64,000 nt of DNA from an uncultured Hormoscilla sp. (GTDB lineage Bacteria; Cyanobacteriota; Cyanobacteriia; Cyanobacteriales; Desertifilaceae): assembly GCA_963921275.4 (NCBI GenBank), contig OZ001293.3, positions 3,136,001-3,200,000 on the forward strand, read 5' to 3'. How positions within the stretch are numbered: position 1 is the first letter of the stretch; each line of letters begins with the position of its first letter. A program made the position numbers and the translations under genes. Positions 21,856 to 52,597 of the stretch are shown in pieces. The notes beneath the pieces are model-generated. The model saw nothing but the letters and a program-made list of their open reading frames with translations. It was not told the origin of the DNA and searched no databases.

Positions 21856-22782
21856 GTGCGATTCGTTCCGGCATAAGCCAGTAGGTGAAAGTCGGGTCTG
21901 GCTCTATCAGCCAGATAACTCTGGTTATCATGGGGGTTAAATTCCCTTTCCCCAGGTACGGGGGTCGAGGGTACTACCGGTCGGAGGTGCTACGGAGCCA
22001 CATCGCCGTGGTGCCTCCCGAGGACTTAAATGTAGGATAACTGGCAGCCTAAGCCGGTGACGCCGCTAGGAAAGATGCTAATGGTTAGAACAAGCGAACC
22101 TATGTAAACCTCGTTAACCAGAACCAGCGGAAGAAGGCTTATGCGCTTGCCCAAAAAGGGAAATGGTAGTTAGTATTAGCTCTTGCCTCTGGCTAATAAC
22201 GTACTCAAAGAACTCCCGGGGTATAGTAGGAACCTAAAAGCATCGTGAAATGATACTAGGGAACGAAGTAACCTCTCGTGAGCTGTCCCCATTTGGACAA
22301 GTTAGATGTAAAGCGCAAGCCACGAAGAAGAAGGATGTCCTAAGAAGCTAACGCCCAGGGTAATGCCTGTGGATATGCAGACGTAGGACGGATATGGTAA
22401 GACACCCTTGGGAAAAGTAACCTTAATGTCACAGAACTAGGGAGAAATTCCGAAAGTACGAATTTTGGATTCAAATCTTAGCCAGGTAAAGTTCAGAGCC
22501 CTTACGAAAAGCGGAAAGCAGAATGGGGAAGATGTTAGTAAAGAGCGGCGAGTATGGTTTGCTGAACTATCCTCCGCGAACCTTCCGCAGCTCAGTACTT
22601 AAACGGTCCAATAGGATTGACCATAAGGGGTAAAATTTCAAAGGGTAAGGGACAACGGGGGTAACCCCCAGTAATCCTACTGATGACAACAGCTTACCAA
22701 CCAGTAGCCGTGTGCGGTTCCAGTCGCTCTTCAGGTTTCGCTCTTGGAGGGTTGGGGAGTGATTCCCAGCTCGACCCCGACC
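21856..22782 (+). mobile_element. ORF-less group II intron (copy B), domain V degenerate
   Basis: GTGCG 5' end; EBS1 TGCCT vs exon AGGCA; DV/DVI ...GGAGGGTTGGGGAGTGATTCCCAGCTCGACCCCGACC. Confidence 0.9.
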
Positions 22783-23308
22783 AAGAGCTTCAACCCGATC
22801 GAGAATAGCAGCATAATCCAAAGGGTCGAAATTAGTTAGTCTCTGGGCCCACTCGCGACCGGGATGCAGTAAATCCCAAACTGAACGTTTCTGCTGGTAT
22901 CTTCCCCGACCCGGGTCGTGATTACCAAACCCGTCGATGATTTGATTCCACACAGGTTGGAAATGCCGAATCATCACCCCCTCTCCCCAAGATCCTAAAT
23001 CAACTTCCATCGCTACTACTTTAAACTCAAACTCACTAACTGAAAGACCATCGCCTTTTTCAATCGATCTTTTGTGTTCTCTCAATCTATTATAGAGATT
23101 TGATGTTCTTCTTTCAGTACTCCCCGTTCGGCGACCACCTGCTATTGCCTTACCCACATAGATGGGCAAGCAGCAGCGATCGGAGTTCGCTCTGCTGATA
23201 CAAGCGTAAAGTGGATTAGCACCGCGATAGTAAAGAGCATAAACTCCCACATATTGACTGAGTTCTGTCTTTAAATCCTCCATTTCCGTTAGAGAGTAGC
23301 AATCTTGT

Positions 23309-23340
23309 CGATCGCGCAGCGCGCGCGCCGAAGGCGATCG
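23309..23340. repeat. 26-bp HIP1-associated small dispersed repeat (SDR5-like) with duplicated CGATCG
   Basis: CGATCG cgcagcgcgcgcgccgaagg CGATCG; removal restores the host frame. Confidence 0.75.
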
Positions 23341-23358
23341 GAAAACTCCAGTAGATCG

Positions 23359-24555
23359 TCAGCGAGGGTCTTCGGGACTTGAAATATCTCTAGCATAGCT
23401 TAAAGTTATTTTAATGCGTTTAGCCAGTATCTCAGATAAGGTAACTGGAACGGCATTTCCTAGCTGACGCATTGCCTCCGTCCAAGCAACTGGAAACCGA
23501 TAGGAGTCGGGAAATGTTTGCAGTCTCGCAGCCTCGCGGACTGTAAAATACCGGACACTGCCATCAGTTAATCGCATCATGTTTTCTCCTCCTGGTACTC
23601 CGTGAACCCCTGCTTTCAAGGTTTTAGCTGGTTCGTCCAGGGGACTGCCTGTATGACCGGGATACTGTCTCGCACCGGGAACGAAATTATGATTTCCGAT
23701 ATCTTTAGCTTCCTCTTGCCTGGGGTCTGGTAAGTTGTCAATAGCGTCGCGGACTGTCAACCATCGCTGGCGATCGGGCGGGAATAATCTAGACTGTAAT
23801 TTTCGCTGCTGGGAGACTAGCTGAGGCGGTATTTCGGGAGGCGAGAGCGAGAACTGTTCCCAGTATTCTCTCGTTACCCACTGTGAATGCAATAGCGCTT
23901 CTTGGGAATGGGTTGGCTGAGGAAATGACCATTCTTGCTTCAGATCGGAACGGATCCCAATAATAAAAACCCGATCGCGCCTCTGGGGTACTCCGTAGTC
24001 AGCAGCGTTTAGCAGGCGGAAGGTGACATTATAGAAAAGACCGTCTTGCAAACCTTTTCTGTCATACTGCTTCAGGCGTAAGGCATGTTCGTTCCAGTGT
24101 TCTGAAGGGCGAATATGGATTTCTGGATAAGTCAGTTGCCAGATGAGGTACTGAAAATATTCAGCAAAGGATTTGCGTAGCAAACCTTTAACATTTTCTA
24201 CTAATAAAGCTTGCGGTTTTAACGAACGCACGGCGCGGATAAATTGGGGAAACATATCTCTTTTATCCTGGAAACTGCGATGAAGACCGCCATTAGAAAA
24301 TGGCTGACAGGGTGGTCCTCCAGCTAACAGAGCAATGTCATCAGTTATTGATGAAAAGTTAAACTGCGCGACATCGCACCTGGCGACTGCCATCTGCTCT
24401 CCAAACAGATCGTGCTTATTTTGAAGTAAGGTTTGGCAAGCTCGATCATTCCATTAAACTGCAAGTTTATGCTGAAAACCAGATCTATAAATTCCTAATG
24501 TTAAGCCTCCTGCACCTGCAAAAATATCAACTGATTTCATTGTTACTTTTTTCAT
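23359..24555 (-). pseudogene. DNA (cytosine-5) methyltransferase with a nonsense codon in motif II
   Basis: DIFAGAGG..KLAV*WN (TAA 24454-24456), GGPPCQPFS, ENV, PQRRDRVF, QLGNAVP. Confidence 0.9.
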
Positions 24556-25099
24556 TCATTATATCTCAATTATAACCTGTAAATTATAACCGCTCTGGCT
24601 GACAGCGAAGAGAGAAAGCAATTCCTTAGCTGCCATCTCCAATCAGAATAAACGGGGACCAAGACGAATGATGCTGGTACTTGTAAATCTGGGCAAGCTT
24701 CGCCTTTTGCAGCGCTTCCGCTTTGCTCATCTTCCAATCTTTCAGATTCTTGTAAAACTCCAGCATCATTTCCTTGGTGCTTTCGTCCTCCGCATTCCAG
24801 AGACTCGCCATCACCGCACCCGCACCCGCCCGTTCAAATAGATAGGCTAGTCCCGCTATTTCTTCCCCGTTGGAGTCCGCTTCCATTGCGGTTTGACAGG
24901 CGCTGAGGGCGATTAAGTCAACGTTTTCTAGTCCCAGTAGCGCCGCCCCCTAATGTTGAGTTTTCGATCGGCAAATAGCAAGCTATTCTCTTCCATCCGC
25001 AATTTGGGACAACCGCCCTTTTGAAAACAGCCGTGAGTCGCCAGATGCAGTAACTGAGACTGAGGTGCTTCCAGCTTGAAGGCTGACAGGGTGGCGTTT

Positions 25100-25273
25100 C
25101 GATGTCTCCGGAGTAGTGCGAGTTCGGTGTCCACCGGGTAGTGCGAATACGATGTCTCCCGGGTAGTGCGGTTACGATGTCTCTTGGGTAGTGCGACTAG
25201 CGCTCCCAAGAGACATCGAGCGACCAGGAGACATCGAGCGATAGGGGACACCGAAAGCTCTCCGGAGACATCG
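25100..25273. repeat. 174-bp composite micro-repeat with 14-bp terminal inverted repeats, inserted in frame
   Basis: CGATGTCTCCGGAG...CTCCGGAGACATCG; removal gives LLGKNATLSAF. Confidence 0.85.
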
Positions 25274-25348
25274 TTGCCGAGAAGCAATTTTTCGGCCATG
25301 ATTTCATTAATTTTTCTGGCTTCTTCCTCAGCCCCTGGCAGATGTTGC

Positions 25349-26593
25349 GGGTGCATCTCACTTTTGCATCTGTGACTCATCATAGATAAATATCTATGAT
25401 GAGTCTTCGATATTTATCTAATAAAAACTTGCAGTCTTTTGGATATTTATACATTATCTATGATAGATTGAAGTCATTTTCTTGCTGCTATGAACCCAGA
25501 ACAACTTTTTGATATGGAGGAATTTGAAATTGACGAATGTATAGACAAAAAAAAATTTGGCTCTACTGGTAAAAATTTTCCAAGGAAAATTTTTAAGATT
25601 TAGAAATTGAACGATTTTCTGCTCGAAAGAGTGGGTTCAGAACTCACAAATTATTGAATACGGGAATAAAAACAGGAAAAAAACGTCAATTGACAACAGG
25701 GAAAGATATCAATCACCAATCGACAAGCTAATTATTTTGAAGTCTCATGTGAAATCCAGTCCCAAAATGGAGAAAAATGCTATGTTAATTTGTGCGAATG
25801 AATCTTATCAAAAGATGATTTAGCAGAGCTCACGGGAATAAAAATTAGTCATAGTACATTACATAGATTAGTTCAAAGGCAGGATGTTGCCAACATCAGT
25901 ATTGGGAGTGAAAGAAGTCGCATGGAGGAAAAGCAAGGATTAGAACAGAAGAAAAAGGACAAGCTTGTGAATGGAAAGATTATAAAGCAGTCAGTGGGAT
26001 ATATTGCGGAGCATTTTTTCAAGCCAACTGGGTAAATTGTCAAAAACTTTTGGCTCCATTTTATTGTCTAGGAGATGGACATGCAGGAATTTGGAAATTA
26101 TTTAAACAGATAGGCGAACCAGGCAAGAGAAGAGAAATATTAGATTGGTATCATCTCAAGGAAAATCTTCATAAAGTAGGAGGCTACGAGGATAAAAAAA
26201 GCTAAAAATCTCCTCTGGTCGGGAAAAGTTGATGAAACAATACTATTATTCAATCGGATCAAAAAGAAACTCATAATTTATGTAATTATTTAGAAAAACA
26301 TCGTTCTCGAATAATTGATTATCAGTATTATCAGTTAGAATCAGTGAGTTCTATCGGTTCTGGTTCAATAGAATCAGTGATTAAACGTATTGGAACACGG
26401 ATAAAAATTTCAGGGGCTCAATGGAATATATCCAACCTTCTCCAAATACTTTCTTGACGTTGTGCTTATATAAATGGGGCCCTTTCTACATGATGTTTTT
26501 GCAAAAGTAAGATGCATCCTTGGCAAAAGCCAATAAATTTTATCATAGATAAAAGTCTATGATAGGTCACAGATGCAAAAGTGAGATGCACCC
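25349..26593 (+). mobile_element. ISKra4-family element, transposase decayed
   Basis: TIRs GGGTGCATCTCACTTTTGCA; 8-bp TSD GATGTTGC; remnants LDWYHLKENL and IGSGSIES. Confidence 0.88.
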
Positions 26594-26794
26594 GATGTTG
26601 CGATCCTGAAGGAACGGGATTTCCTAAGGCTAAGACTCTCGCGGGCGAGGACGCCTGTCTGAGGTCGGGTTTCTCCCTGGCGGAAATGCGGGTGCGATAG
26701 GAAATGGGATATTTCTCGATCGGGTATTGCTCCGTTTCGCTGTCGTACAGGGTTTCAAAGCATCGACTACCGCACGGATTTCTATTCCCTGGGA

Positions 26795-27395
26795 GTGACG
26801 TTTTTTGAACTCCTGACCGGACAATTGCCCTTTTCAAGCCAGGATCCAATGGAGTTAGTGCATTGTCACATTGCCCAGGGGGTGCAGTTTCCAGCAGACA
26901 GTCAAGTGGACGAGGTGGTGCAAGGGATTGTACTCAAGTTGATGGCGAAAAATGCCTCAGACCGCTATCAAAGTGCCTTGGGTTTGAAGCACGATCTAGA
27001 GCGATGTCTGCAACAGTTGGAAAGCACTGTGCAAATTACCCCATTTTCCCTTGGCCAGCGGGATATGTGCTCACGCTTTATCATTCCCGAAAAACTCTAC
27101 GGACGGGAAGCAGAAGTTCAAACCTTACTAGATGCCTTCGAGCCCGTGGCGAATGGGGCAAGGTCAATGATGCTAGTAGCAGGATTTTCCGGAATTGGCA
27201 AAACTGCTGTAGTCTCAGAGGTGCATAAGCCGATCGTGCGCCAGCGGGGCTACTTCATCAAAGGCAAGTTCGACCAGTTAAATCGCAACATTCCCTTTAG
27301 TGCGTTCATCCAAGCCTTCCGCAGTTTGATGGGTCAATTGCTCGGCTCATCCGATGCAGAACTCGCGAATTGGAAGACCAAAATCATGGAAGCGC
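26795..27395 (+). pseudogene. fragment of Ser/Thr kinase-AAA ATPase-sensor protein
   Basis: ELLTGQLPF, DRYQSALGL, KLYGRE, GFSGIGKT; truncated at both ends. Confidence 0.85.
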
Positions 27396-27398
27396 TAG

Positions 27399-29303
27399 AG
27401 CGTCGGTCCAGTAGAAGTAGTTGACAAATCAATCAAAATCTGGTCTGACTCAACCAAGTCTTAAATTTTCTGCAGTTTGCTCTTGAGTTGTTACTGGCAT
27501 CCTAGCAAAAACATGAAGATTATGTACAACAGCCAGGCGCCGTAGAGCCAAGAGATTCGTGATGTATCCAAGATAACGCGCGCGCTCGCCCTGCCACTGA
27601 CCGATGTGAGCTTCGATATCCCCCAGAAGGGACGCCCATGGCTGCGCCACGCTACGCGATAGTCGCACTACCCCAGAGATATCGAGGCTATGTTCTACCG
27701 TTACTCGCTCTCGTAGTTTTGAACGACCATTAGGTGTTTTTTGACCTTCCAGTATCACTTGACATGGGTGATAATATAATAGATCACGCTATGTCAAGTG
27801 ATACTGCCACGTAATTCTTGCAATAGAGACTCATCGGGATGAAGAGAAACTGTGCGACCTTTGCTGTTAGTAGTGCATTGAGAACGTCAGGGACAAATCT
27901 CACACTTGTCGCGAGGAAACTGAACCCTTTTTCCTTCCTCAAAAGTTACAGCTACTCCATTAGGACAGCGAATTAATTGTTTTTCCCAGTCGATAACGAA
28001 AGCTGTTCGATCAAAAAACTCACCGTTGCGTACCCGCCAAGCCTTGCCAATTATTGTTAAATCATCGTCGCGTTCTTTAACAAAATGACTGTTAAGATAT
28101 CCTCGAGCTATATGGAATTCTTCTAATGTTACTTGTTGGGCTTCTAAATCAGAAGCGCTCGCTTCTGTAACACTTGATTCAGGAATATTGGCTGGTGTCA
28201 CACCCACTGCTCGCACTAAGCCTGAGTCTAAATCCTTAATAATATGACGTTTGTAACGATCAAACCTTTGACTACGGCTTTTTCGTCCATGACGCATTTG
28301 TAAGTCTTCAATTGCAATGCGCCGCTCTTTAGCTACGCCCTTACGAAGCTTTGGGTCGCCTTCTTCTGTAACCTCCACATCTTGCGCTTCAACTTATCTT
28401 GCTGCTTCCAGACTTTTGTTGACAGCAATCATAGTTGGGTCATCCAAGTTATCTTGTTGTTCAACCCACGATTCAACTTGAGCAAGTAATTGAAGAATCG
28501 TTGTTAAAGCTTCTGTTCTTGCTTGTGGATCATTCCAATCCTTATCTAAAGCTGCTTTGAGACTTAACCCAGTCATAATAGAAGCTCCTAATTGTGAGGC
28601 GATCGTCTCATACTCTTGCTGCTGTTGACGAGCAATTAATTCTAATGCTTTTCGCAGTGACTCAATAGGTTGTAAGTATCTTCGACTCTTGCTGCTCCCC
28701 ACAAAGGACTTGAATCTTGTTGCTCTCAAGGTTCGCGAACTGAATCCCCCTTTTTGCTCGACCATTTCTATTGTGCGTTCCAATAAACGGCGATCGCCTT
28801 TGGATGCAATCAAAGCAGCACGAAATCTGACAAGTGTTCCTTTGCCAAAAGGTGCGCGATCGCAGTCTATGCAATTCTTAACCAATTGCCACCATCTGTC
28901 CAGGCTCAGAGCTTCTATGAGCTCATCATCTGAAATCCCAGTGTAAGCCTGTAAAATGATAGCTAATGCTAGTTGAGCTGGCTGTGTCCCTCGGGTAGTG
29001 CGAGTAGCGCTCTCGGGGGACACAGTGGAACTGGACATAAACCAACTGTGCTGTCTTTATATATAGTTGCTAGTTCACGCATGAAATTGCTCTGAAAATA
29101 ATTCATGACGTATCTCTCTTAAAATTATGAATAGTTTAGCTTTTCGTATCCGATTGGCCACTTGCTGTTCAGCGTCAGAAAGTTCAATTGGGGGATTCCA
29201 GAGGACTGGACGCATATGTGTACTCCTGCTTACATATTTAGATATTTTTCTAGTATATACACATTTTCGTTTTTTTGTCAACCCCCTCTACTGGACTGAC
29301 GCT
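27399..29303 (-). mobile_element. IS1182-family element, transposase pseudogene
   Basis: TIRs AGCGTCGGTCCAGTAG / CTACTGGACTGACGCT flanked by CTAG; MRPVLWNPP..MRHGRKS..RERVTVEHSL fragments. Confidence 0.85.
27750..27806. repeat. 57-bp hairpin CAGTATCACTTGACAT...ATGTCAAGTGATACTG inside the IS1182 transposase
   Basis: 16-bp perfect inverted repeat; related copy at 60247-60297. Confidence 0.8.
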
Positions 29304-29307
29304 CTAG

Positions 29308-29495
29308 GGCAAGATCGCGTAATCTTTACTCACGACGCTGATTTTTTGAGGCTGCATCAACAAGGAGTTGCACATGCAGGTATTGTTTATTCTCGTCCAG
29401 GTCGTCGTTCAATTGGAGAAATTTTACGTACTCTCATCCGGATCTGGGAGTCCCAAACACCATCTTCTATGTACCGACATGTTGAGTTTATTTAG
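29308..29495 (+). pseudogene. DUF5615 PIN-like C-terminal fragment
   Basis: RVIFTHDADFL..HAGIVY; 5' part lost at the IS end. Confidence 0.75.
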
Positions 29496-29657
29496 GATCG
29501 CCTTCTCCCTCGCGCCTCCTTCGCACCGGAACAGAGATCGCCAGATCGGGTGCCGCCCGTGCAGCCCGATCGCCCCCCTGACAGCTATAGGTTATTGACA
29601 ATTGACAAGTGACCCAGAAACCCGGTACGCGCTCGAGTTACCGAGTTCCTTAGTCCA

Positions 29658-30021
29658 TCAACCCGAGCGCAGTCCCACGCGACCTAGTTCCACAATTACT
29701 AGCTTACCTGGAATCTGTTCGACAATCTCCTTTTGTTCGATAAACATCGATAACAATTCCAAAATTACCGCTGCAGATGCATTTCCCGCTATTGCTAGAA
29801 CTACTATTCCTGCATACTCTGCGGGAGGATAGTTGCGAATGTCAGCAAAATCAAAATCTCCTGTGAGAATACTCCACCCACCAGCACGAGCATATTCGGC
29901 AATTTGGATGTCTTCCGCTCCTCTTAAGCCAACCCATGCGGACATCAATAGCTTCATGGGAATACTGTCTTAATAAGTTAGCTGTGGAACGAGGCAGATC
30001 CTCATCAATCAAAAATCTCAC
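29658..30021 (-). pseudogene. DUF5615 PIN-like toxin, frameshifted
   Basis: MRFLIDEDLPRS start; ILTGDFDFADI..YAGIVVL. Confidence 0.75.
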
Positions 30022-30023
30022 AG

Positions 30024-30258
30024 TTATCCTCCTACGGCTACCAGAGGATAAACTTTTTCTTTCTCAATCAATTCCGCTGCTAATCTTTGAGCTGCGAAAA
30101 TATCTTCTTCGGTCACTTCATATTCCATGCACACTTCCTATGCAAGTCATTCCTGCTGCCAACCCACCTACTATGCGGGTTATGGGAATTCTGGTTCCCC
30201 TAATTATTGGCTTGCCTGGGTGGATTTTTGGATCTATTATTATGCGCTGCTCATTCAT
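30024..30258 (-). pseudogene. DUF433 antitoxin, frameshifted
   Basis: IIIDPKIHPGKPIIRGTRIPI. Confidence 0.7.
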
Positions 30259-30685
30259 CTACTCTTATCTCCCATAGTTGTTACTGCGCAACTCGATCGA
30301 CTACTCTGACTTGACCAAACGTTTTATCGCTGATATTTCTACTGTACCACTTTTTTGCCTGATCGCACCCCCTCACCCCTCCGATCGCGCCTCCGGACAC
30401 CGGTAGGGGCACGGCATCAGAAATTGTCGGTTGATTGCAAATTTTCCTGTCGCCGTGCCCCGGCTGTTTATTCCCGATCGCATCCCCATGAAAGCCCGAT
30501 CTCATTTTCCCGGTGTACGGCCTATTTGACATTTTCATCTCCACCGAAACCTCTGGTATGCCGTACACATACAACCGGTATTCTATTCTATTTTATTTTT
30601 TGATGCGATCGCCCCTTTCCCCGTTCCCGTAGCGAAGCCTGTGCCGCCCCCCGACGGGGCGATCGCACCTGTTCATGAGACTAAT

Positions 30686-30916
30686 TCAACTTGCAAGATT
30701 TAATATCTTTGCTTGCGCTGATTCAAGAATTACATCTCTAATAAAAGAACTTGCCTGAATAATCTCGATTCCGATTAATTCTCCTGCTTCATTTAATTCG
30801 GCAGTTATATTGGGCATAATTTCTACTGTCCCTGCTTCTGGTTCGTCAGAAAGATTGATATGCAGGATGTCTTCTTTCTCGAAGTATCTCATTTTCGCAT
30901 TATTCATTTTATTCAT
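30686..30916 (-). CDS. DUF2283 antitoxin-like protein
   Basis: YFEKEDILHINLSD..ELNEAGELIGIEI. Confidence 0.8.
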   Translation of the reverse strand: MNKMNNAKMRYFEKEDILHINLSDEPEAGTVEIMPNITAELNEAGELIGIEIIQASSFIRDVILESAQAKILNLAS

Positions 30917-31028: not shown

Positions 31029-31049
31029 TATATTGTCATGTTTGCCAAC

Positions 31050-31847: not shown

Positions 31848-32092
31848 TACTTTGAAATCGATTGACTTGCGCTTTAAGGCATTATTGGTGTCATTGCGAG
31901 GGGGGCTCTTCTTCGCAGTAACTTCGTCAGCACAACAGGAAGACCCCCCGAAGCAATCTCCCACCCCGCAGGACCGCCGGAGATTGCTTCGGGGGGAGTT
32001 ACTCCTACAGCACAAGGATCTCTCAATTATCCCCCCTCGCAATGACAATTCTTTACTGTCCCAAAAAGCGCAGTTTCTCACCGTTCGGAGTA
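31848..32092. mobile_element. 245-bp MITE with TA duplication, containing a nested GTCATTGCGAG/GAAGCAATC palindrome
   Basis: TA|TACTTTGAA...TTCGGAGTA|TA; removal restores the host frame. Confidence 0.75.
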
Positions 32093-32095
32093 TAT

Positions 32096-34470
32096 GTGCG
32101 ATTCGTTTAGTGTAAACCACCGGCGATCAAGCCGGCGGGGGACCACTAGCAGGGTTTCATTAGCCCTGACAACTTACAGATGATGGTGGTGAAAGTCCAC
32201 CCCTCCAGGTGCAGGAGTGACAGCACTTCCCCTACGGTAGAGATGGCATCAATCCGTAAAGCGGGGATGAAAGGCGCTCTAACTGGCAGCCTACACCGGT
32301 TATCGCCGAGCAAGTAGCCATGATGAGCATAAAGCGAAGGTTTGCAGCGTCGTGACGAACAACCAGTGAAATAAGGCTGACACACTGGCCCAAAAGGGAA
32401 AGGATAATGGTCACCGGCGGATATATTCCTGACCAGTAAGCACTGACAATAAACCCGGCGTAAGGAACCCATCTAAAGTTACAAATAATCATCGGTAGGA
32501 ACGAAGTAAACCAGGTATACACTCTCTACCACCGGTCGATAGGTAAAGTAGCCACCAAAGGCGTAACCTCTGTTTTCATCAGACAGGTCATACCTGGGAA
32601 AGATTTCGTGGAGAAGCAAACGCCTGCCCGTAATGAGCAGGATACGCTGACGCCCTCACGGTAATGTCAAATGTCAAGCGGTGAGTAGCAAATGATACGT
32701 CATAGGCACGGCACTGAGCCGATGAATGAATGGAAGGATATCCCCTGGCGAAAGCTAGAGCGGGTAGTCTTTAAGCTGCAAAAGCGGATTTACAGAGCGG
32801 CACAACGTGGCGATAAGCGAATGGTTCGCAGACTCCAGAGGTTATTGGCAAGCTCCCAGGCCGCAAAAAAGCTAGCGGTACGTCAGGTAACACAAGATAA
32901 CCAGGGAAAGAAGACCGCCGGTGTGGACGGTGTGAAAGCACTGACCCCAAAGCAACGATTGGAACTGGTAGGACAAATAGGAATCTTGGGAAGGGCAAAA
33001 CCCGCACGACGGGTATGGATACCTAAACCAGGAAGAACAGAAAAACGTCCATTGGGAATACCAACGATACACGACCGCGCGACACAAGGGCTGCTGAAGA
33101 TAGTACTAGAGCCCGAATGGGAAGCATACTTTGAGTGCAACTCATACGGATTCAGGCCAGGGAGAGGATGCCACGACGCGATCGAAGCAATAATCACCAG
33201 CATCAACCAAAAACCCAAATGGGTATTAGATGCGGACATTGCGAAATGCTTCGATAGAATCAACCACAGAGCGCTAATGGAAAAACTGAATACAACATCA
33301 CCAATCCGTAAACAAATACGGGCATGGCTAAAAGCCGGAGTGATAGACAAAGGATACTGGCACCCCACTGATGAGGGCACCCCCCAAGGTGGAGTGATAT
33401 CGCCATTACTGGCCAACATAGCCTTACACGGGCTTGAGGAAAGGATAATGGAAATGGCAAAAACACAAAGAGAAAAGCAAAGGTTGACAGTAGTCAGATA
33501 TGCAGATGACTTTGTGGTAATGCACAACGACAAGGAAAAGGTGGAAGAAGCGCAAAAGGTTGTAGCGGAGTGGTTAAAGGGGGTTGGACTAGAGCTAAAA
33601 CCAGAAAAAACCCGAATAAGTCATACGCTATACGGAGAAAAACTGGGGTTCGATTTCCTGGGAATCAACGTAAGACAATATGAGGTAAGTAAAAACAGAA
33701 GCGGGAAAAATCCACACGGTAAAGCCCTAGGTTTCAAAACCTTGACAAGGCCAAGTGACAAGTCCATAAAGAAGCATAAAGAAAGGCTGTCGGAAGTGAT
33801 AGCCAGCCATAAAGCGGCACCCCAAGAAGCGCTAATAGGAAAGCTCAACCCAATAATACGGGGATGGGCGAATTACTTCAGAACGGGGGCAAGCAAGGAG
33901 ACCTACTCCGAAATGGACAACTACTTATGGAACACCCTATGGCAGTGGGCAAAAAGAAGACACCCGAACAAATCCGGGAACTGGATAGCCAAAAAGTACT
34001 GGTTGAACAACCAAGCGAAAGAATGGCGATTCGGGAACGGAGAAATCAAACTAATGAAACACACAAGTGTGAAAATAGTAAGACATGTAAAGGTGAAAGG
34101 AAAAGCGAGCCCATACGACGGGAACCTCACATACTGGAGTACCAGACTAGGCAGAAACCCAGAAATACCTAACAGAGTGGCAAAGTTGCTCAAAAGGCAA
34201 AAGGGAAAATGCCAGCAATGCGGGCTTACATTTAAGGACGGAGACAAGTGGGAAGTTGACCATGTCAAACCTCTAACACTAGGAGGCAAAGACCAATACG
34301 ACAACCTACAACTACTACACAAACATTGCCACAACCGAAAAACTGCCAACGATGGCAGTAATAGCCGTACCCATGACAAGGGTGGCGTTACTGAGGAGCC
34401 GGATGAGATGAAAGTCTCACGTCCGGTTCTGAAGACGAGTCGGAGGGGTGACTCTCTGGCTTAGTTTAAT
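32096..34470 (+). mobile_element. group II intron with RT/maturase/HNH ORF, antisense to its host gene
   Basis: GTGCG start; DV GAGCCGGATGAGATGAAAGTCTCACGTCCGGTTC; ends TTTAAT; flanks rejoin in frame. Confidence 0.95.
32692..34464 (+). CDS. ltrA: group II intron reverse transcriptase/maturase with HNH endonuclease
   Basis: KRPLGIP, SYGFRPGR, GTPQGG, RYADDF, GWANYF, CQQC..DHVKP..LHKHCH. Confidence 0.97.
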   Translation: MIRHRHGTEPMNEWKDIPWRKLERVVFKLQKRIYRAAQRGDKRMVRRLQRLLASSQAAKKLAVRQVTQDNQGKKTAGVDGVKALTPKQRLELVGQIGILGRAKPARRVWIPKPGRTEKRPLGIPTIHDRATQGLLKIVLEPEWEAYFECNSYGFRPGRGCHDAIEAIITSINQKPKWVLDADIAKCFDRINHRALMEKLNTTSPIRKQIRAWLKAGVIDKGYWHPTDEGTPQGGVISPLLANIALHGLEERIMEMAKTQREKQRLTVVRYADDFVVMHNDKEKVEEAQKVVAEWLKGVGLELKPEKTRISHTLYGEKLGFDFLGINVRQYEVSKNRSGKNPHGKALGFKTLTRPSDKSIKKHKERLSEVIASHKAAPQEALIGKLNPIIRGWANYFRTGASKETYSEMDNYLWNTLWQWAKRRHPNKSGNWIAKKYWLNNQAKEWRFGNGEIKLMKHTSVKIVRHVKVKGKASPYDGNLTYWSTRLGRNPEIPNRVAKLLKRQKGKCQQCGLTFKDGDKWEVDHVKPLTLGGKDQYDNLQLLHKHCHNRKTANDGSNSRTHDKGGVTEEPDEMKVSRPVLKTSRRGDSLA

Positions 34471-42708: not shown

Positions 42709-42822
42709 ATCACCCAGATTCTGTTGCTTGACACCATCTTATGACTAGCATGGGTGTCAAGCGACAGTCAAGTCAGATTATTGGTAGGGAAGGAAATAAG
42801 CTGTTATGAAAAGAGGTGTAAG

Positions 42823-44362: not shown

Positions 44363-44473
44363 GACTCAAACTATAGCGCCGGTCAAGAAACCGGGTTTCT
44401 CTGGTAAAAACATTGATATCTCGTTGATAGCGATGCCAGAAACCCGGCTTCTAGCTTCTACTTGACCGATGTA

Positions 44474-47266
44474 CTAGCCGCGATTGAGATTTTTGCCGAT
44501 CCTAAGTCTTCCTGAACTTTCCGTTTTCTTAAACTCTATTGGTGGTGATGGCTCTTCTATCTCTGTCTTCGGCAGAGTTCCGGAACGGTAAAGATGTTTG
44601 AGACTTTGCTGCACATCATTAATCGATAATCGCTTACTATGGTCTAGAACAAGCATTTTTTCAATCAGTTGACTTATTGTTGTATCCATTGATTCAGGCT
44701 CAGTTTTGCTCTTAGCAGTTTTCTTAAAGTTAGAGCTGAATCTTAGTCGAGAAGAAATTCCAGTACCTTCAGACCCTACTTTACCACTAGATGCTGCTAT
44801 TGGTATTGTAAGTCTGTCTCCCTTCAGTAAAGCTTCGTAAGCATAATGAGCATCAGACGGCAAAGTAGGAAATTTTCCTGTCCAGTATTGGCAAAAGATT
44901 AAACCGAGTGAAAATATATCAGACTTTTTGGTTGGCGGCGGTGTTTCCCCTGATGTAGCGATATGCTGACCAAACTCTGGAGAATAGTAGGCTGGATCGC
45001 CAACCAGATCGTCAGGAGCAATTGATTCACCTTCAAGCAGACTACTGTCAAAATCGATGACTTTGGCAATAAGTTTGCCTTCCCACTCTTGAATTAAATA
45101 AATTAATGCCAGAGAATACTGTTCTTTATATTCTTCATTCCCTGGTCTTACGACTTGCTCACAATACCCAATAGCATTTTCATATTGTCCTTCCTCATAG
45201 TAAAATTGACCAAGCCTAAAGTTTGCTCTTATATGATCTGGTTCTAATTTTAAAACTTGTTGACATAACTTAACAGTTTCTTGAATGTATCCTCTTCTTT
45301 CCATTTCTTCAGCCTGCTTGATAAGCTCGTGAATTTGCTTACCCTTATCAGCATCATCTTCCTCTCTTAAATTTCCTTTTTCTGAAACCATATTACGCCA
45401 CTTATTACCAAATCTATTAAATAGATTTTTACCGTCACCACCGCCAGTAACTGATGAATCTCTGTCAAGCTTTTTTTCGGAGTCTTCCGCCGGTTCTTCA
45501 CTATCAGGAGTTTCAAGCATCGCTTCATAATCAGAACGATAACTGTCCCAGAGTCCCATTAAATCCTCATGGCTGTCAGTTGGCGAATTATAAGAGTTTC
45601 TCAAATTAGCTAACCGAGTTTGATAATTTGATTTTAGCTCGTCAAATTCAGTATAACCAACTGGGTACAAGACGAGCGATACATCATCTTGCCTAATCTT
45701 TTCATACTCTTTGATTAACAACTCTTTCCATTCCGATGCTGTCTTTGACTCTGTCAGTGTCTCTAGCAACAGTTTCTCAAAATCCCAAGGTGCGGGAATA
45801 TATTGGAAACAACCATCAGTACAAGCTAAGATGCACCCGCTTTCCTGAAATTTTTCTGACTTCCAATGAATTTGCCATTTCTCAGGCATATCAGCAGTTA
45901 TATACTGAGACATTGGCGGGTCTTCGCGGATCATCTGAAAGGCATCTTTGCTGCTTTCTAGATCGTCTTTGGTTAGCTGTTGTAGACCTTTGGTTGGACT
46001 CAAAAAATAAATGCGAGAATCCCCCATCCAAGCTAGATTAACCTCAAACTATTCGTTGGGTTCCTTTTGCTTGGGCATGTTCGCGATCGCTATAGTCGTA
46101 CATAACCTCTTGCTAGCTAGTGAACCCCTGATCTTGGAGATTCCCATCTTCCGATCTGCTTGAGTTTTTAGGTCTGTACATATCTTCTGCTGAAGCTGAT
46201 CTGCTACATCTTTCGTCAGTCTGCCTTTTTGATGCTGTAAAAGGTTCTTGCTCAACTCAGCAGCTTTTCTAGATGCAATTCTTCCGCCTGTTTCCCCATC
46301 ATAGCCTGCGGATCTGCCCCCCAAACCGTCAAATACACCTATGACTACTGTCTGAGGATAATCTGAATCAGCTAGGTAATCATCCTCACCTTTACCACTT
46401 GTGCTTGGTCGGGGTCGAGCTGGGAATCACTCCCCAACCCTCCAAGAGCGGAACCGGGCTTGCGACTTTCACCGCACCCGGCTACTGGGCAGTAGGGCCT
46501 TGTCATTGGTAGGATTACTGGGGATTACTCCCGTTGTCCCTCATCTCATGTAATTTCTCCCCTTTCCTGGTTGGTAAGTGGCGCTGCCGGATAACCTTTA
46601 GTATTACCAATTTATCTGAGTCCGTTTCACCAGTTATCCCACCTTCGCATGCTAGGTATTGGGGCGTATTAGGGTTACTTTAGCCCGAGATTTCCTACTG
46701 TCACCGACCCCTGTTTGCTTATCCCAGGCATTAATTAGGGCTTTTGCTTCTTGGGCCATCCCTCCCACCGTAGCTTGCGCTTCACATCTGACTGGTCTCG
46801 GTAGACAGCACACGATGGGTTACTTCGTTCCCTAGTATCATTTCACGATGCTTTTAGGTTCCTACTATACCCCGGGAGTTCTTTGAGTACGTTATTAGCC
46901 AGATAGAAGAGCTAATACTAACTACCATTTCCCTTTTTTTGGGCAAGCGCATAAGCCTTATTCCGCTGGTTCTAGTTAACGAGGTTTACATAGGTTCGCT
47001 TGTTCTAACCATTAGCATCTTTCCTAGCGGCGTCACCGGCTTAGGCTGCCAGTTATCCTACATTTAAGTCCTCGGGAGGCACCACGGCGATGTCGCTCCG
47101 TAGCACCTCCGACCGGTAGTACCCTCGACCCCCGTACCTGGGGAGGGGGAATTGAACCCCCATGATTACCAGAGTTCCTAATTTCTTAGGCTAGCGTTCC
47201 GTGTTTGACTACGTTAGACTAGAACAAATCGCACTCTATCTTTATAGTTAAAGGAAATTCATTCAT
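44474..47266 (-). pseudogene. PP2C-like phosphatase/TPR gene (intron-split, in-frame TAG) joined by deletion to the C-half of a Ser/Thr kinase
   Basis: GKGED, VFDGLGG, GDSRIY, CTDG, DDVS; TAG 46049-46051; then KVIDFDSS, YYSPE, SDIFSLG with no kinase N-lobe. Confidence 0.8.
46407..47234 (-). mobile_element. ORF-less group II intron (copy C), sense in the PP2C gene
   Basis: GTGCG start; EBS1 TCTATCT vs exon AGATAGA; intact DV; excision gives MNEFPLTIKIESTSGKGED. Confidence 0.92.
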
Positions 47267-47426
47267 TGACTTAAGGAGTGTAATTTTAAGTACCGGTAGC
47301 CGATTACTTTACCTAGTCAATTATATGACTTATTGAACCAGTGTCATATTATGACCAGTAGTCATCGGCATCTCAAACTATCCACATTCAGCCTTTACTG
47401 TGAGCATTTTGCTACCAGATAAGGAA

Positions 47427-48104
47427 TTAGATGCTATTAGCTATAACATTCAAAATTTCTTCCATCTCTAATTCTTGTAGTCCATCACCGCCTTTGGATA
47501 TATAATGTATAGTGTTTTCCCAGCTATTCCCGATTACTGTCCAAGGGGAGGCATCCGGTGCAAACAGAAGCAGACGCTTTGAACTATCTGGCATTTCAGA
47601 CCATTGATCTGTCAGCTCATCCAGTGTCTTGGCAATATCGTTCGGATAATGGCTCGGCTTTGGACCTTTATCTAAGCTATGGGCACTGGCATCAGTATAA
47701 ATGACTATAACTTGACGCTGTTTTGAAAACTTTTGCCCTGTTTCCCAATTCGAGTTTATGGCTAGTGCTAAAGCCTCTAAACCATTTTCTGGTTCATCTC
47801 CTCCGCCATCTGCCTCTATATCAGACACAAAGTTAGCGTAGTTAGGAGATTGCGATCTGAGATCGAAAAATTCCGAACAGACCATTGCCTTGTCTGGCTC
47901 GTCAGCATAGTAATCCCGGAATACGATCACTTTGACTCGTATCTGATCGACTTTTTTCTTTTTTTCCTCCATTTTAACTTCTAGCTTACTATAGAAGTTT
48001 AGCGCCTCTGACTTGACTTGGTCTATTATAGGATGCATTGAACCTGTAGCATCAATGCACATCACCAAATCAACAGTATATTTTATACCTTGACCTGCTA
48101 CCAT
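47427..48104 (-). CDS. vWA-domain protein (TerY-like)
   Basis: MIDAS DATGSM, GGGDEPE, YTDA. Confidence 0.88.
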   Translation of the reverse strand: MVAGQGIKYTVDLVMCIDATGSMHPIIDQVKSEALNFYSKLEVKMEEKKKKVDQIRVKVIVFRDYYADEPDKAMVCSEFFDLRSQSPNYANFVSDIEADGGGDEPENGLEALALAINSNWETGQKFSKQRQVIVIYTDASAHSLDKGPKPSHYPNDIAKTLDELTDQWSEMPDSSKRLLLFAPDASPWTVIGNSWENTIHYISKGGDGLQELEMEEILNVIANSI

Positions 48105-48393
48105 AAACAGTCACCTCCTGTCAATATACACTTTTGCTCATTAGCTGCCCTAGCTTGATACGGTGATATATGTATCAGCAAAGAGCGCTCCTGTCCGCAA
48201 ATTTTTCTCTCTGTCGTATATTAACAACTCCCAATCTTGGGAAAAGTTATATAAAAGTCATAAAAAGTCATATAAAAGTCATAATCTCGTTCTTTGCGCT
48301 AAAATGCATATCGAGGCAGAGGTGCCAGACCCCAAGGGTGCCGGTTATAACCTAGGCCCACATCGACACTCTACTAATGATGTACTCTGACAC

Positions 48394-49215
48394 ATGACCG
48401 CTGACGAGGCCCTGGCGTTTGTGGAAACCCTGCTCGACTACCAGCCCTTAAACCGAGTCGAAGAAATCATATTTCGGGAATGCTGGGAAGGGCGGCGGTC
48501 CTATGGGGAAATTGCCAAAAGCACCAGCTATCAACCTGACTATCTCAAGCAGACCGGTTACAAACTCTGGGATCTACTCTCAGATGCCTTTGGGGAAAAG
48601 GTCACAAAAAAGAATCTCCAGTCAGTCGTGAAGCGATACCTACGGCGAAATCAACTGACTTTACATCGAAATCAGGTGATTGCTGGCAACCTCAACTGCG
48701 CAACCCTCCATGAAGCAAACCTAAGTGGAGCCACACTATTCGCTAAGGTAGATGAAGCAGACTTGCATCAATCTAATTCACAGGGGGCAATAATACCAGA
48801 TGATAACGCTCGATCGGGTGCAGAGAGCAGAGATGATGCAGAGGAAAATAACCAAGAAGTTCAGTTTCATTCAGAAGAACGAGTCTATGAATGGAATGGT
48901 TTGCAGTTGAGAACGGATGCAGAAGTGAAAATTGCCCAAGCACTCGATCGCGCCTCAGTTGTCTTCTCCCCCAACCCGCAACTGCGACTGACAACCCGCG
49001 AAGGCCGACTAAATCAACAACCCAACTTTGCCATCTTCCACCAAGGCAAATTAGGCATTCTGCTGATCGATCCTGTCGAACAGCATCCAGAACAGAGTCA
49101 CGAATACGAAACCTCGCAGTCCCTCCCGATAGTTCAGCGTTACCATGCTAACAGATGCCGGGAAGAACCCGATCGGGTAGTACAGGAATTTTTAGCTATC
49201 TTGACTCAAGCATAG
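48394..49215 (+). CDS. N-terminal HTH + pentapeptide repeats + C-terminal nuclease-like domain
   Basis: SYGEIAK..LWDLLSDAFGEKVTKKN; ANLSGA; LRTDAEVKIAQALD. Confidence 0.7.
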   Translation: MTADEALAFVETLLDYQPLNRVEEIIFRECWEGRRSYGEIAKSTSYQPDYLKQTGYKLWDLLSDAFGEKVTKKNLQSVVKRYLRRNQLTLHRNQVIAGNLNCATLHEANLSGATLFAKVDEADLHQSNSQGAIIPDDNARSGAESRDDAEENNQEVQFHSEERVYEWNGLQLRTDAEVKIAQALDRASVVFSPNPQLRLTTREGRLNQQPNFAIFHQGKLGILLIDPVEQHPEQSHEYETSQSLPIVQRYHANRCREEPDRVVQEFLAILTQA

Positions 49216-49251
49216 AGAATCAAGTCCCAGTGAGAGAGTGCTTCAATGCTT

Positions 49252-49905
49252 TTAATTACCAGCGCTATAAATCTGTTCTGCGGTCAAATTCAGTTCGGAA
49301 AATACTGGAGATTCAATGAGGTTATCCTCCCGAAATTGACTGAATTCGTACTCGCCGTCCACAAGTGTATATACAGAAATAGTTGGTTGCTTGGGGTTGC
49401 CAATAAACCGCCTGCCACCTAAAGCACGATAATCAACTATCCAGTATTCAGGGATACCCATTTCTTCATAATCTGTGGCTTTAAGAAAGTAGTCATCGAT
49501 GTGGTACGAATAGTGCTCCCAGGAGAGATCAAAGCGCCAATTGGTGCTCACTACTTCTACAATTAGACGGACAGACTCTCCCATTGTAATAGTTGATTCA
49601 GCCTCCCAGCGCGGTTCCTTGCTGACAGCCGGGCGATCGAGTACAATTACATCTGGTTCATAGCCTGATTCATATCGAAAAGGTTTAACGACACATTCTT
49701 TGGGAATAAAGCAGTTGCAGCCTTGATTGTCAATTGCAACATTTAGCTTCTTGATTATAAATCCCGCAATTTCTGAATGTTTACCCCTCGGTTTCGGCAT
49801 CTCAACAATAACTCCGTTGTGTAGTTCGTAGCGGTGTTCTGAATTTTCTGGGTACCAGGCTATGAATTCGTCAAAAGTTATAGGTTTGTGTTTCGATTGT
49901 GTCAT
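49252..49905 (-). CDS. Uma2-family endonuclease with a 12-aa in-frame repeat insertion
   Basis: YEPDVIV, VEVVSTNWR[FDLSWEHYSYHI]DDY, GIPEYWIVD. Confidence 0.9.
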   Translation of the reverse strand: MTQSKHKPITFDEFIAWYPENSEHRYELHNGVIVEMPKPRGKHSEIAGFIIKKLNVAIDNQGCNCFIPKECVVKPFRYESGYEPDVIVLDRPAVSKEPRWEAESTITMGESVRLIVEVVSTNWRFDLSWEHYSYHIDDYFLKATDYEEMGIPEYWIVDYRALGGRRFIGNPKQPTISVYTLVDGEYEFSQFREDNLIESPVFSELNLTAEQIYSAGN

Positions 49906-50044
49906 GGTACTCTATTCTGTGAGAGAGACTGTGCGAGAGGATTGTGGTTGGGATGAGGCAAAATACGTATTTACTATTGTAGCAGATTTGCTCTTGAGAT
50001 CCAGGTGCATCTCACTTAAATTAATGTGCGATCGCCCCTTAACC

Positions 50045-50163
50045 CCGCAGTCCATCGAGGTCCTCGACCATTACCATGGTAACAGATGCCGGGAAGAACC
50101 CGATCAGGTAGTGGAGGAATTTTTAGCTATTTTGACTCAAGCATAGAGAATCAAGTCCCAGTG
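50045..50163 (+). repeat. duplicate of the 3' end of gene 48394..49215
   Basis: Matches ~49120-49232 (YH.NRCREEPD.VV.EFLAILTQA* plus AGAATCAAGTCCCAGTG). Confidence 0.85.
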
Positions 50164-50433
50164 CCAGTAAAGTGCTAAGAAACCAGGTTTTTCCCAAAAA
50201 ACTGGTTTATGGCATACTGGTGAATGATGATAATAACTCTGGTAGTTTTTCTTCTGCTGACGCGATCGCTCTTGTCTTATTGAATCATACCTTTGTTTAT
50301 CTCTGTTTACATTCTAGCACAAACAGGTACCCATTTTATAACATTATCGCGCGATGATGCTTGGACAACAATTAGGCGATTTCTGGAAAATAAGATACCG
50401 ATGCCTGAGAATGAAGTATGCTCTCGTCTAATT

Positions 50434-51590
50434 GGGTCTCCTGTACTTATGGTGATAAGTTTTTCTTATCAGAGAAGCAAGCTAATAAACGTAAACGGAA
50501 GTTCTCAAAGTTTGTAAATCCGTGTCGCTTAATCAGCTTAAGAATATTGTTAATTCCTTCCATTACTCCACTTGTTGTATGACTAATAAAATAATTACAA
50601 ATTTTCGTGATTTTTGATAAAAAAACTTAGCATACCATTTTTTTAATTGACCTTTAGCTGATTTCAATGTTTTACTGGTTTCATAGATAGCACGAAGTTT
50701 TTCTTTTAGCTGATTAGCAATAGCGCTCGCGCTATTGCTAAAATTACTTCTAGTTTTTCTTGGGCTTCAAGATCTGCACCGTTGCTTAACAATAAATATT
50801 TACTGCCTCTTTCTGTCACCCCGAGCTTGCAATTTGTTTAATTCACGATTGACATGTTGCATAACATGAAATCGAGCGTAAACTATTTGTGCAGAAGATT
50901 TTTTCGACAACTAAAGGATAACCTCCCCATATATCTATGCTGATCTCTACAACTCCTTCGCGGATCTCTAAGTCAAGCAAGGGTTTCAATTATTTCCCAT
51001 AAGTTTATGAGAATTGATTACTTCTAATAAATCTCCTGTATCTAGATCGCTAATGACTGTTACAAAATCGCGTCGCGTAAACTAATCTCATCAAGACTCA
51101 AAGATTTTGGCTGACCCCATTTTTTTTTACTGCTTGGCGCGCTCAATAAATCAAATATACTTTGAACCTGAGTTTCAGTTAATTTTTCTTCCCGACTAAC
51201 TTGAAGAACTGTAGTTACTTTAACAGGTTCATATATACTCTTGATCTCCACTGGTTTGACGGCCAATCAATAAAGTCTAATTGCTCGTCAACATAATGTT
51301 GACAAGAAGAACAATCTCATTGTCGATGAGGGATTTTTAACTATACGGCTCGCCCCTGACAAATTATCAATTAAACTTTGACGTTCTTGATGCAGTTTTG
51401 TTGTAGTTTCTCCACATTGTATTTTTTCATTAAGCTAGGGAATTTGAAAATAGCTGATATCATCAATGAGAGAGCAACTTTCAACAGTTGCATGATCGTA
51501 AATTCAATAATTTATCGAGATTAAAATCCATTTCTTCACTACTCAAAATGTAACACCGTATACATTTTACACCAAAAACCCAGGAGAACC
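50434..51590 (-). mobile_element. ISL3-family element remnant
   Basis: Ends GGGTCTCC / GGAGAACC; 8-bp TSD GTCTAATT; decayed ORF starting MDFNLDKLLNL, LSLDEIS. Confidence 0.8.
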
Positions 51591-51686
51591 GTCTAATTTG
51601 AGGAGTCAATGCTATGAATCCTGCTATGACTTTCCCTACTGCTCTCGATAAGTCCCACATTGAAGACCTGCGACTGGCCGCTTCTC

Positions 51687-52597
51687 GTGCGATTCGTTCG
51701 TAAATGACCCGCAACAGGTCATGAGCGACCGGTTACATCAACCGGGAACTTTGATGTTCATGGGGGTTAAATTCCTCCCGCCCAGATGCAGGGTTGACAC
51801 CGGTCGGAGGTGCTGCGGAGCGATATCACCGTGGTGCTGAGCGAGGACTCAAATGTAGGATAGCTGGTAGCCTAAATCGGTGACTCCGCTAGGAAAGATA
51901 TCCAAGGTTAGAACAAGCGAACGTATAAAAACCTCGTTAACCAAAACCAGCGGAATAAGGCTATATACGCTGGCCCCAAAAGGGGAAGCAGTCAGGGCTA
52001 GCTTTGGGCAGTGGCTAGTCATGTATCCGAAAGACTGTCGGGGAATAGTACGGACCTAAAGATATCGTGAAATGACATCAAGGAACGAAGTAACCTCTCG
52101 TGTGCTGTCTGGTCTCGACCGGCTAGACAAGTTAGATATTAAGCGCAAGCCACGGGAGGAGGGATGTCCCAAAAAGCAAATGCCCAGGGTAATGCCTGGG
52201 ATAACGCCCGGAGCAATCCCGGTGATGTCCACAAGGACGCTGACGTGGGACGGATATACCAGGATGCTGTTCAGATTAGTAACTCCACATATATTATGAG
52301 CCCGATTTGGACCCCTCGGGGACTGATGGAGGTATGAGTGAAGGTGTAGGTGAAACAGGGTGACTGCCGTCGGACGGCGATATAAACTAGGCGAGAGACC
52401 ACAGGTTCCTTGACAACCGCTCGCTGACCTGCACATAGAAGGAGCCAACAAGTAGACAGTAAGGGCCTACGGTGGGTAACCCCTATAAAGCCTATCCATG
52501 ACAAGGACCTGGTAACCAGTAGCCGTGTGCGGTGAAAGTCGCAAGCACGGTTTCGCTCTTGGAGGGTTGGGGAGCGATTCCCAGCTCGACCCCGACC
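51687..52597 (+). mobile_element. ORF-less group II intron (copy D), sense in the ISAzo13 transposase
   Basis: GTGCG start; DV GCCGTGTGCGGTGAAAGTCGCAAGCACGGT; excision gives DLRLAASQLTGAKRRSF. Confidence 0.92.

Follow-up and report, generated by a model that had tools for sequence, protein, structure and literature searches.

ORF-less group IIB-type introns in cyanobacteria: probable diverged lineages, each with its own EBS1

A 64-kb stretch from the genome of an uncultured Hormoscilla sp. (contig OZ001293.3, positions 3,136,001 to 3,200,000; the whole stretch is referred to here as the window) contains three group II introns, designated B, C, and D, that lack an open reading frame (ORF) for a reverse transcriptase (RT). 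Most probably they represent three branches, now diverged, of one non-autonomous cyanobacterial lineage of group IIB-type introns, in which each branch carries its own exon-binding site 1 (EBS1) and is helped by a protein in trans. The pairing of EBS1 with the 5' exon across eight lineages, drawn from the window and from related genomes, and the constancy of EBS1 in a recent burst of copies in Hormoscilla sp. GUM202 support this reading.

Three ORF-less introns in the window

The three introns and their principal properties are as follows.
21856..22782, plus strand: intron B, 927 nt, ORF-less group II intron, degenerate, recognized by homology to C and D
46407..47234, minus strand: intron C, 828 nt, ORF-less group II intron, ribozyme core intact (RF00029, 42.5 bits; domain V folds)
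51687..52597, plus strand: intron D, 911 nt, ORF-less group II intron, ribozyme core intact (RF00029, 45.0 bits; domain V folds)

The coordinates proposed in a first-pass annotation of this DNA are exact, and alignment confirms that B, C, and D are homologous. They are the only copies of the family in view, as a blastn search of the window returned no further copies or fragments. B and C are nearly identical across most of domain I, as that annotation had noted, with 12 of 360 columns differing in the core (alignment columns 82-441), and D is ~77% identical to both. There is no near-identical full-length pair among the window copies. The reported lack of an RT ORF was borne out by a tblastn search (E<=10) with the intron-encoded protein (IEP) of intron A, the RT-encoding intron of the window described below, which found nothing inside B, C, or D, remnants included.

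All three introns open with GTGCG, in agreement with the 5' boundary of the group II consensus (5' GUGYG, 3' AY; PMC4424553; this and the other papers are cited from the portions of their text that were available). Their shared 5' start is GTGCGATT and their shared 3' end is ...CCCAGCTCGACCCCGACC, with ...GATTCCCAGCTCGACCCCGACC as the 3' terminal text common to all three. The 5' motif reads GTGCGATTC in B and D and GTGCGATTT in C, and is followed by a hypervariable stretch of ~60 nt. The GUGCGAUUC 5' end, which is among the criteria for subgroup IIB2 (PMC4649490), is present in the family.

Rfam matches to group II domains V and VI are located at 34394-34470 (+), 52518-52584 (+), and 46486-46403 (-), corresponding to introns A, D, and C, and the RF00029 scores of C and D are above the gathering score of 40 bits. 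By score and fold, domain V (34-nt helix, AGC triad, 2-nt bulge, and GNRA loop) is recognized in C and D and is absent from B, and C and D retain the predicted bulged A of domain VI, the GUGCG start, and the near-invariant 3' end. In the consensus fold over seven aligned rows, domain VI forms a helix that is capped by a GNRA loop and has a GA bulge located 8 nt from the 3' end. Because domain VI hardly varies among these rows, the fold is without covariation support, and the branch point is predicted from the fold. The best match to the Rfam D1-D4 models was sub-threshold (19 bits, E=0.28), and these models were not used for the structure of domain I. Many invariant domain I columns are common to the B/C/D family and the RT intron A.

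Relatives in Hormoscilla and Prochloron

We scanned the contigs of genomes other than the window's own with an exact 21-nt domain VI word that forces an A after GACC; members with other bases at +1 or with mismatches in domain VI escape such a scan. Fifteen loci (L001-L015) were recovered, including 13 in Hormoscilla sp. GUM202, one in Hormoscilla sp. GM7CHS1pb, and one in Prochloron sp. Like the window family, they share the domain I architecture (~70% identity), domain VI, and the ...GACC end, are ORF-less, have A as the +1 exon base, and carry EBS1 in the same loop. Unlike it, they belong to different species and include a burst of 12 near-identical GUM202 copies with one EBS1. None of the 15 loci from this limited, exact-word census has an RT inside the intron. 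Three long loci hold insertions (IS66, IS630-like, and TnpB). L005 (3.1 kb) was considered as an RT-bearing member and rejected since its ORF is an IS66 transposase, and L014 and L002 carry the IS630-like and TnpB insertions.

Within 7 kb of Hormoscilla sp. GUM202, locus L007 holds two identical copies in direct tandem (1715-2617 and 2618-3520, joined as GACC/GTGCGG), a third, diverged copy (L007c; 5872-6758) with its own EBS1, TTTCCTT, next to the exon AGGAAA, and a reversed family fragment (13-176). The Prochloron locus L002 (1525-3520) is a chimera of an A-type domain I, 91% identical to intron A, and family-type domains V and VI, without domains II to IV; its A-type domain I is interrupted by an IS605/TnpB element. 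No paper was retrieved by a literature search that combined Hormoscilla with group II introns, and a plasmid collection searched in distant mode gave no match to intron C. When positions 30000-54900 were compared with the same collection, the only matches were six of ~170 nt each, 77-79% identical, in RT genes carried by plasmids of Tolypothrix and Microchaete.

EBS1 matches the 5' exon of each lineage

The EBS1 sequences and the intron-binding sites (IBS1) with which they pair are listed below.
22184..22190, plus strand: EBS1 of B, TGCCTCT, loop positions 4-10 (11-nt loop at 22181-22191)
21849..21855, plus strand: IBS1 of B, CAAGGCA, five contiguous Watson-Crick pairs from -1
46901..46907, minus strand: EBS1 of C, TCTATCT
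47235..47241, minus strand: IBS1 of C, AGATAGA, 7/7 Watson-Crick pairs
52006..52012, plus strand: EBS1 of D, GGGCAGT
51680..51686, plus strand: IBS1 of D, GCTTCTC, four Watson-Crick and two GU pairs, mismatch at -4

These loops, and the counts of 5/7, 7/7, and 6/7 pairs for B, C, and D, are those of the first-pass annotation and were reproduced. A domain I hairpin ends in an 11-nt loop, and EBS1 takes up positions 4-10 of that loop. This register is independently confirmed by the IBS1 logo of 11 Hormoscilla sites, which reads CAGAYY at -6..-1 and is complementary to GGTCTG at loop positions 4-9, as well as by five other lineages. The stems of the hairpin, read by eye, vary by lineage and are still paired (TTAGC/GCTAA, CTAGC/GCTAG, and GATATC/GATATC). 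Among the 127,986 window 7-mers, 9 do as well as the pairing of C and 1,609 (1.3%, Watson-Crick only) as well as that of B; for D the background is 2.8% with GU pairs included and 6.5% with Watson-Crick pairs only. Within the window only C is decisive on its own.

The relatives extend this comparison. L015, L005, L014, and L007c carry other EBS1 sequences, each pairing at 6/7 positions with its own exon. Over eight lineages with eight different EBS1 sequences, the cognate combinations sum to 46 of 56 Watson-Crick pairs, compared with a permutation mean of 18.75, and the observed sum was reached by 1 of 40,320 permutations, the identity only. The covariation of EBS1 with the 5' exon claimed in the first-pass annotation is therefore well above chance across copies.

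EBS1 differs between lineages and is kept within a burst

That annotation further proposed that the guide loop varies faster than its scaffold, which proved correct in part. Three of the 12 differences between the cores of B and C make up the contiguous EBS1 change (TGCCTCT versus TCTATCT). Within the domain I core, which is 97% identical between B and C, EBS1 is changed at 3/7 positions compared with 9/353 elsewhere (Fisher p=9e-4). The corresponding values are 6/7 versus 80/353 for C and D (p=9e-4) and 4/7 versus 80/353 for B and D (p=0.054). A similar excess was found between the main Hormoscilla family and L007c (4/7 in EBS1 versus 125/899 elsewhere, p=0.01). Over the whole intron, however, the contrast vanishes (B-C, 3/7 versus 274/940, p=0.34; B-D, p=0.22), so that the guide can be called faster only when it is set against the conserved core of domain I. 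Variability far above that of EBS1 is found in the first ~60 nt and in domains II to IV.

The identity between B and C is a mosaic, with ~45% over the first ~60 columns (27/60; 21856-21915 in B and 47234-47177 on the minus strand in C), 97% over columns 82-441, and a mean of ~40% over columns 442-830 (domains II to IV), which are likewise divergent and range from 0 to 83% in 30-column windows. The first 80 nt of C are 83% identical to Hormoscilla locus L014, whereas those of B are unrelated to it. This mosaic, the match of C to L014, and the Prochloron chimera suggest module exchange between lineages.

The proposal that EBS1 is individually rewritten at each target was not upheld. GUM202 is the only related genome in which a recent burst is visible, and its 12 copies of 903 nt have four variable intron positions, none of them in EBS1. 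Because these copies share one EBS1 at 12 junctions with differing 5' flanks, where it forms 7, 6, 6, 6, 5, 6, 5, 4, 6, 4, 6, and 7 of 7 pairs (G-U included), EBS1 is not rewritten per insertion. The best reading of B, C, and D is as separate, diverged lineages, three in number, rather than as sister copies of one burst, and new EBS1 sequences would mark older splits, as in L007c.

The GACC 3' end

The elements end in ...GACC and thus depart from the 3' AY boundary, a deviation that lies in the terminal motif, outside the catalytic core. Since the AY consensus makes a GACC end unusual, the position of the 3' boundary was put to the test. In the 12 GUM202 copies, GACC is where identity ceases, and in one case the GTGCGG of a second copy comes immediately after it. 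Joining the exons of L001 restores a perfect RTX-type repeat of 9 residues only with the GACC end, and exon joining at GACC in L006 links Uma2 reading frames of 186 and 94 codons. Excision of 47234-46407 as intron C yields MNEFPLTIKI/ESTSGKGEDDY (the slash marks the junction here and below). The Glu at this intron-split codon is conserved in 15/15 uninterrupted PP2C/TPR homologues whose N-termini were read, and four of the homologues (P0001, P0018, P0021, and P0052) have the same 11-residue start as the window gene and an equal distance to GKGED. The intron thus ends exactly after GACC, and for C this boundary is fixed by the host-protein alignment.

Splicing of C would be expected to give ...AAGATAGA/AAGCAC..., and that of D ...GCTTCTC/AACTGACC.... 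Alternative 3' ends at 52584 (from the Rfam domain VI alignment), after GACCAAC or GACCAAG, and at GAC/C were ruled out by reading frame, identity limits, and homologue spacing. ORF continuity over 10 Hormoscilla sites, taken as a bulk count, is ambiguous for the 3' end, which was settled by the readings of L001 and L006 and, for C, by the PP2C homologues. In B, C, D, and L007c, none of them forced by the search word, the downstream exon begins with A, and its first two bases are AA in all four (22783-22784 in B, 46406-46405 in C, and 52598-52599 in D), which suggests a fixed IBS3.

The EBS2 loop

The EBS2 region lacks a conserved hairpin in our reading of the alignment and includes the following sequences.
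22081..22087, plus strand: ATGGTTA, taken as EBS2 of B in the first-pass annotation, inside an unpaired loop of ~25 nt
47012-47006, minus strand: ATGGTTA in C, the same text as in B
51904-51910, plus strand: AAGGTTA in D, EBS2 loop

An EBS2/IBS2 pairing had been reported for all three introns. When the EBS2 loop was searched for free duplexes with exon positions -20..-7, 27% (B), 14% (C), and 7% (D) of 3,000 random window 14-mers did at least as well as the true exon, so that the pairing is no better than chance. In the Hormoscilla site logo, GATGAA is conserved at -13..-8, and its ATGA and the TCAT of the loop are complementary. By eye, RACTR can be read near -16..-11 in the 5' exon of each of B, C, and D (21839-21844, 47246-47250 on the minus strand, and 51672-51676); with wobbles allowed, it complements the GGTT that is invariant in the EBS2 loop. 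As a lead only, RACTR could be IBS2 or a contact of the IEP.

Intron A and the candidate helper

32096..34470, plus strand: intron A, RT-encoding group II intron (RF00029, 59.6 bits), the sole RT in the window

The ORF of intron A (32692-34464) contains RVT_N, RVT_1, GIIM, and HNH domains, with YADD at residue 270, and encodes a complete IEP (RT, X, and HNH). It spans domains V and VI, with a stop 6 nt short of the intron's 3' end. The EBS1 of A (32421-32429) forms nine contiguous pairs with the exon at 32087-32095, at the loop homologous to the family EBS1, and no other position in the whole intron does so. As stated in the first-pass annotation, domains V and VI of B, C, and D differ from those of the RT intron at 32096 (Rfam). 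No RT-encoding intron with the domains V and VI of the family was found in the window or among the 15 loci.

The complete IEP of A is encoded 12-17 kb away from C and D. Sequence of the A type is also present beside family copies in GUM202 (L004, 70% amino acid identity over 210 residues) and in Prochloron, where L002 includes 233 nt that are 91% identical to A. Co-occurrence, and only co-occurrence, points to an A-type IEP as the best helper candidate and the most likely type. With no RT in any member, the ORF-less family is presumably trans-dependent, as had been suggested. A separate HNH-type gene on the minus strand (17462-17665) has weak similarity to the HNH part of the A protein (30% over 70 residues, E=1e-4).

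Host genes and present state of B, C, and D

22703..22740, plus strand: destroyed domain V of B, with two block substitutions (GAAA to TCCA and AAGCAC to TCTTCA)
22783..23283, minus strand: Eco29kI-like restriction endonuclease gene, host of B (Pfam PF09517, 1.1e-58; reading with the intron removed)
44474..46406, minus strand: host gene of C (PP2C/TPR), exon 2, identified from homologues (exon 1, 47266-47235)
52598..53540, plus strand: host gene of D, a decayed transposase gene of the ISAzo13 family (exon 1, 51614-51686)

Intron B is inserted in the Eco29kI-like gene 12 codons ahead of its natural stop. Because it is antisense to this gene, it is not spliceable from the restriction-enzyme mRNA. 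B displaces the final 12 endonuclease codons, and the endonuclease ORF continues for 72 codons into the intron; the region 22783-24393 on the minus strand encodes the endonuclease together with a C5 cytosine methylase. The first-pass annotation was correct in treating B as a group II intron and missed the loss of its domain V. The two block substitutions replace the tetraloop and the 3' strand of domain V. Rfam gave no domain V match in B even at E<=10, and B folds without the domain V helix (z-score 0.06). The text of domains V and VI that flanks the lesion is identical to that of C and D, and the new text includes TCGCTCTT, which occurs twice, 14 nt apart. In this respect the lesion resembles templated (quasi-repeat) mutation more than random decay. 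Stop avoidance was rejected as its cause, since by manual reading a D-type domain V adds no stop in the restriction-enzyme frame. B is evidently a dead copy, a fossil, and as such a relic it is uninformative on present targeting.

Intron C is in the sense orientation at codon 11 of the PP2C/TPR gene. This gene has an in-frame TAG (46051-46049, minus strand) at a position where the homologue P0001 (83% identity over 436 residues, tblastn) has K, and the text past the TAG is still well conserved. The TAG could reflect a recent pseudogene, read-through, or a sequencing error. With its intact core, sense orientation, and 7/7 pairing, C is probably still spliceable. Intron D is likewise in sense, and its junction reads AAS/QLTGAKRR; the match to PF07592 (2.6e-37) in its host is at 53097-53540 in a different frame. 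D has an intact core, a decayed host insertion sequence (IS), and a weaker EBS1 pairing than C.

Explanations for the diversity of EBS1

The reading that we consider probable is that of diverged ORF-less IIB-type lineages, each with its own EBS1 and helped in trans. Because B, C, and D cannot make their own reverse transcriptase/maturase, their spread, and their splicing if any, would depend on a protein acting in trans. Pairing of the EBS1 of a lineage with the last 5-7 bases of the 5' exon is observed, and by analogy it may reflect site choice by reverse splicing. New EBS1 sequences would arise occasionally and found new lineages, and within a lineage, copies would spread with unchanged EBS1 into partly matching sites. 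Several points weigh against this reading. The window has only three copies, the pairings of B (1.3%) and D (2.8-6.5%) are individually weak, the EBS2/IBS2 pairing is no better than chance in all three, and in the Prochloron locus L002, a degenerate chimera, EBS1 and IBS1 do not match (the longest run is 4 bp). Intron A is only distantly related to the family, with 69% identity over 137 nt of domain I and different domains V and VI. Finally, because of the in-frame TAG in the host gene, selection for the splicing of C may already be gone. We think it unlikely that the family is a purely non-autonomous lineage across cyanobacterial genera (the window's organism, Hormoscilla, and Prochloron), with no RT-bearing member, a near-invariant domain VI, and a GACC end, that would be parasitic on an A-type IEP with domain VI and the 3' end as the recognition handle.

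Strict rewriting, in which a fresh EBS1 is acquired with every insertion as a hypervariable cassette on a constant scaffold, is consistent with the contiguous 3-nt EBS1 block between B and C in an otherwise 97%-identical core (p=9e-4) and with the difference between the main Hormoscilla family and L007c (p=0.01). It is nonetheless improbable given the single EBS1 at 12 GUM202 junctions with different 5' flanks, the lack of faster EBS1 change over the whole intron (p=0.34 and 0.22), and the greater variability of the first ~60 nt and of domains II to IV. The match between EBS1 and exon could also be a consequence of insertion, if retrotransposition to poor sites were followed by mutation of EBS1 or the exon that restored pairing and splicing. 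Mismatched insertions do occur, because Hormoscilla sites have as few as 4/7 pairs, and the best match is that of C, whose host is a coding gene, the setting in which splicing would count most. However, B (antisense) and D (in a dead IS) are without selection for splicing yet have 5-6/7 pairs, and in the available text on Thermosynechococcus elongatus, changes in EBS define retrohoming families and well-matched sites are read as retrohoming (PMC2882425), so that compensation after insertion is hardly a likely explanation.

Recombination or template switching between co-resident lineages, instead of point mutation, could account for both the EBS1 differences and the patchwork. The B-C mosaic (~45% / 97% / ~40%), the 83% match of the first 80 nt of C to L014 next to the unrelated start of B, the A-type domain I joined to family domains V and VI in L002, and the contiguous blocks in which EBS1 and the domain V of B have changed are all consistent with such exchange. 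Yet no donor for the 3-nt block is in view, and the peripheral regions may be merely unconstrained and fast-evolving, and we regard this as a rather unlikely origin of the differences. A possible but doubtful explanation is that all three introns are immobile fossils whose helper has gone from the genome. The destroyed domain V of B, the decayed host IS of D, the premature TAG in the host gene of C, the lack of a near-identical full-length pair in the window, and the lack of an RT with the family domains V and VI in the window or the 15 loci are consistent with extinction, whereas C and D keep domain V, the predicted bulged A of domain VI, GUGCG, and the near-invariant 3' end, and a complete IEP is encoded 12-17 kb away.

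Comparison with known intron families

Mohr et al. (2010) assigned the introns of T. elongatus to six families by EBS1/2/3, and ORF-less copies in this genome are mobilized by 'driver' IEPs, with preferred insertion in other mobile elements (PMC2882425). The Thermosynechococcus precedent for EBS diversification of ORF-less introns to which the first-pass annotation referred thus exists in the available text of that study. More generally, bacterial ORF-less introns are nearly always present alongside related IEP-encoding introns, and the CL2 class is almost confined to cyanobacteria (PMC4424553). ORF-less introns of Trichodesmium rely on trans maturases (PMC4649490).

Like the ORF-less TeI3 introns of T. 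elongatus, which occur together with the ORF-containing TeI4 introns, the diverged lineages described here are cyanobacterial ORF-less introns, here of probable IIB type, with lineages whose EBS match their own sites, with insertion in mobile elements (for D an IS, and in Hormoscilla L007 other copies, in tandem or nested), and with dependence, presumed in this case, on the IEP of another intron. As far as that text describes it, TeI3 keeps N- and C-terminal ORF remnants, whereas none were found in the window family by tblastn at E<=10 with the IEP of A, the sole IEP used. TeI3 is also close to the RT-encoding TeI4, whereas the sole resident RT intron of the window is distant and has different domains V and VI. 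The absence of an RT-bearing member among the 15 loci, the ...GACC end, and the lack of a thermophily context are further differences, and the present family is known from sequence alone. It resembles the introns of Trichodesmium erythraeum (PMC4649490) in that those in the available account are ORF-less elements inside protein-coding genes, with a 5' GUGCGAUUC (IIB2-type), a stem-less EBS2, and a presumed trans maturase. Splicing of the Trichodesmium introns is documented in vivo, whereas the window family, a set of genomic sequences, is likened to them by description.

These introns are a new family that represents a known phenomenon, the principle of which was established in 2010. Its distinctive points are the ...GACC end, the lack of ORF remnants, and the lack so far of an RT-bearing member; if they hold up, the non-AY end and the missing RT-bearing member will be of interest to group II specialists. 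The family adds a second, independent cyanobacterial case of ORF-less introns with diversified guides, one that includes the symbiont genera Hormoscilla and Prochloron, and it places two modes of spread side by side, with rare EBS1 changes that would found lineages and fixed-EBS1 bursts into loose sites.

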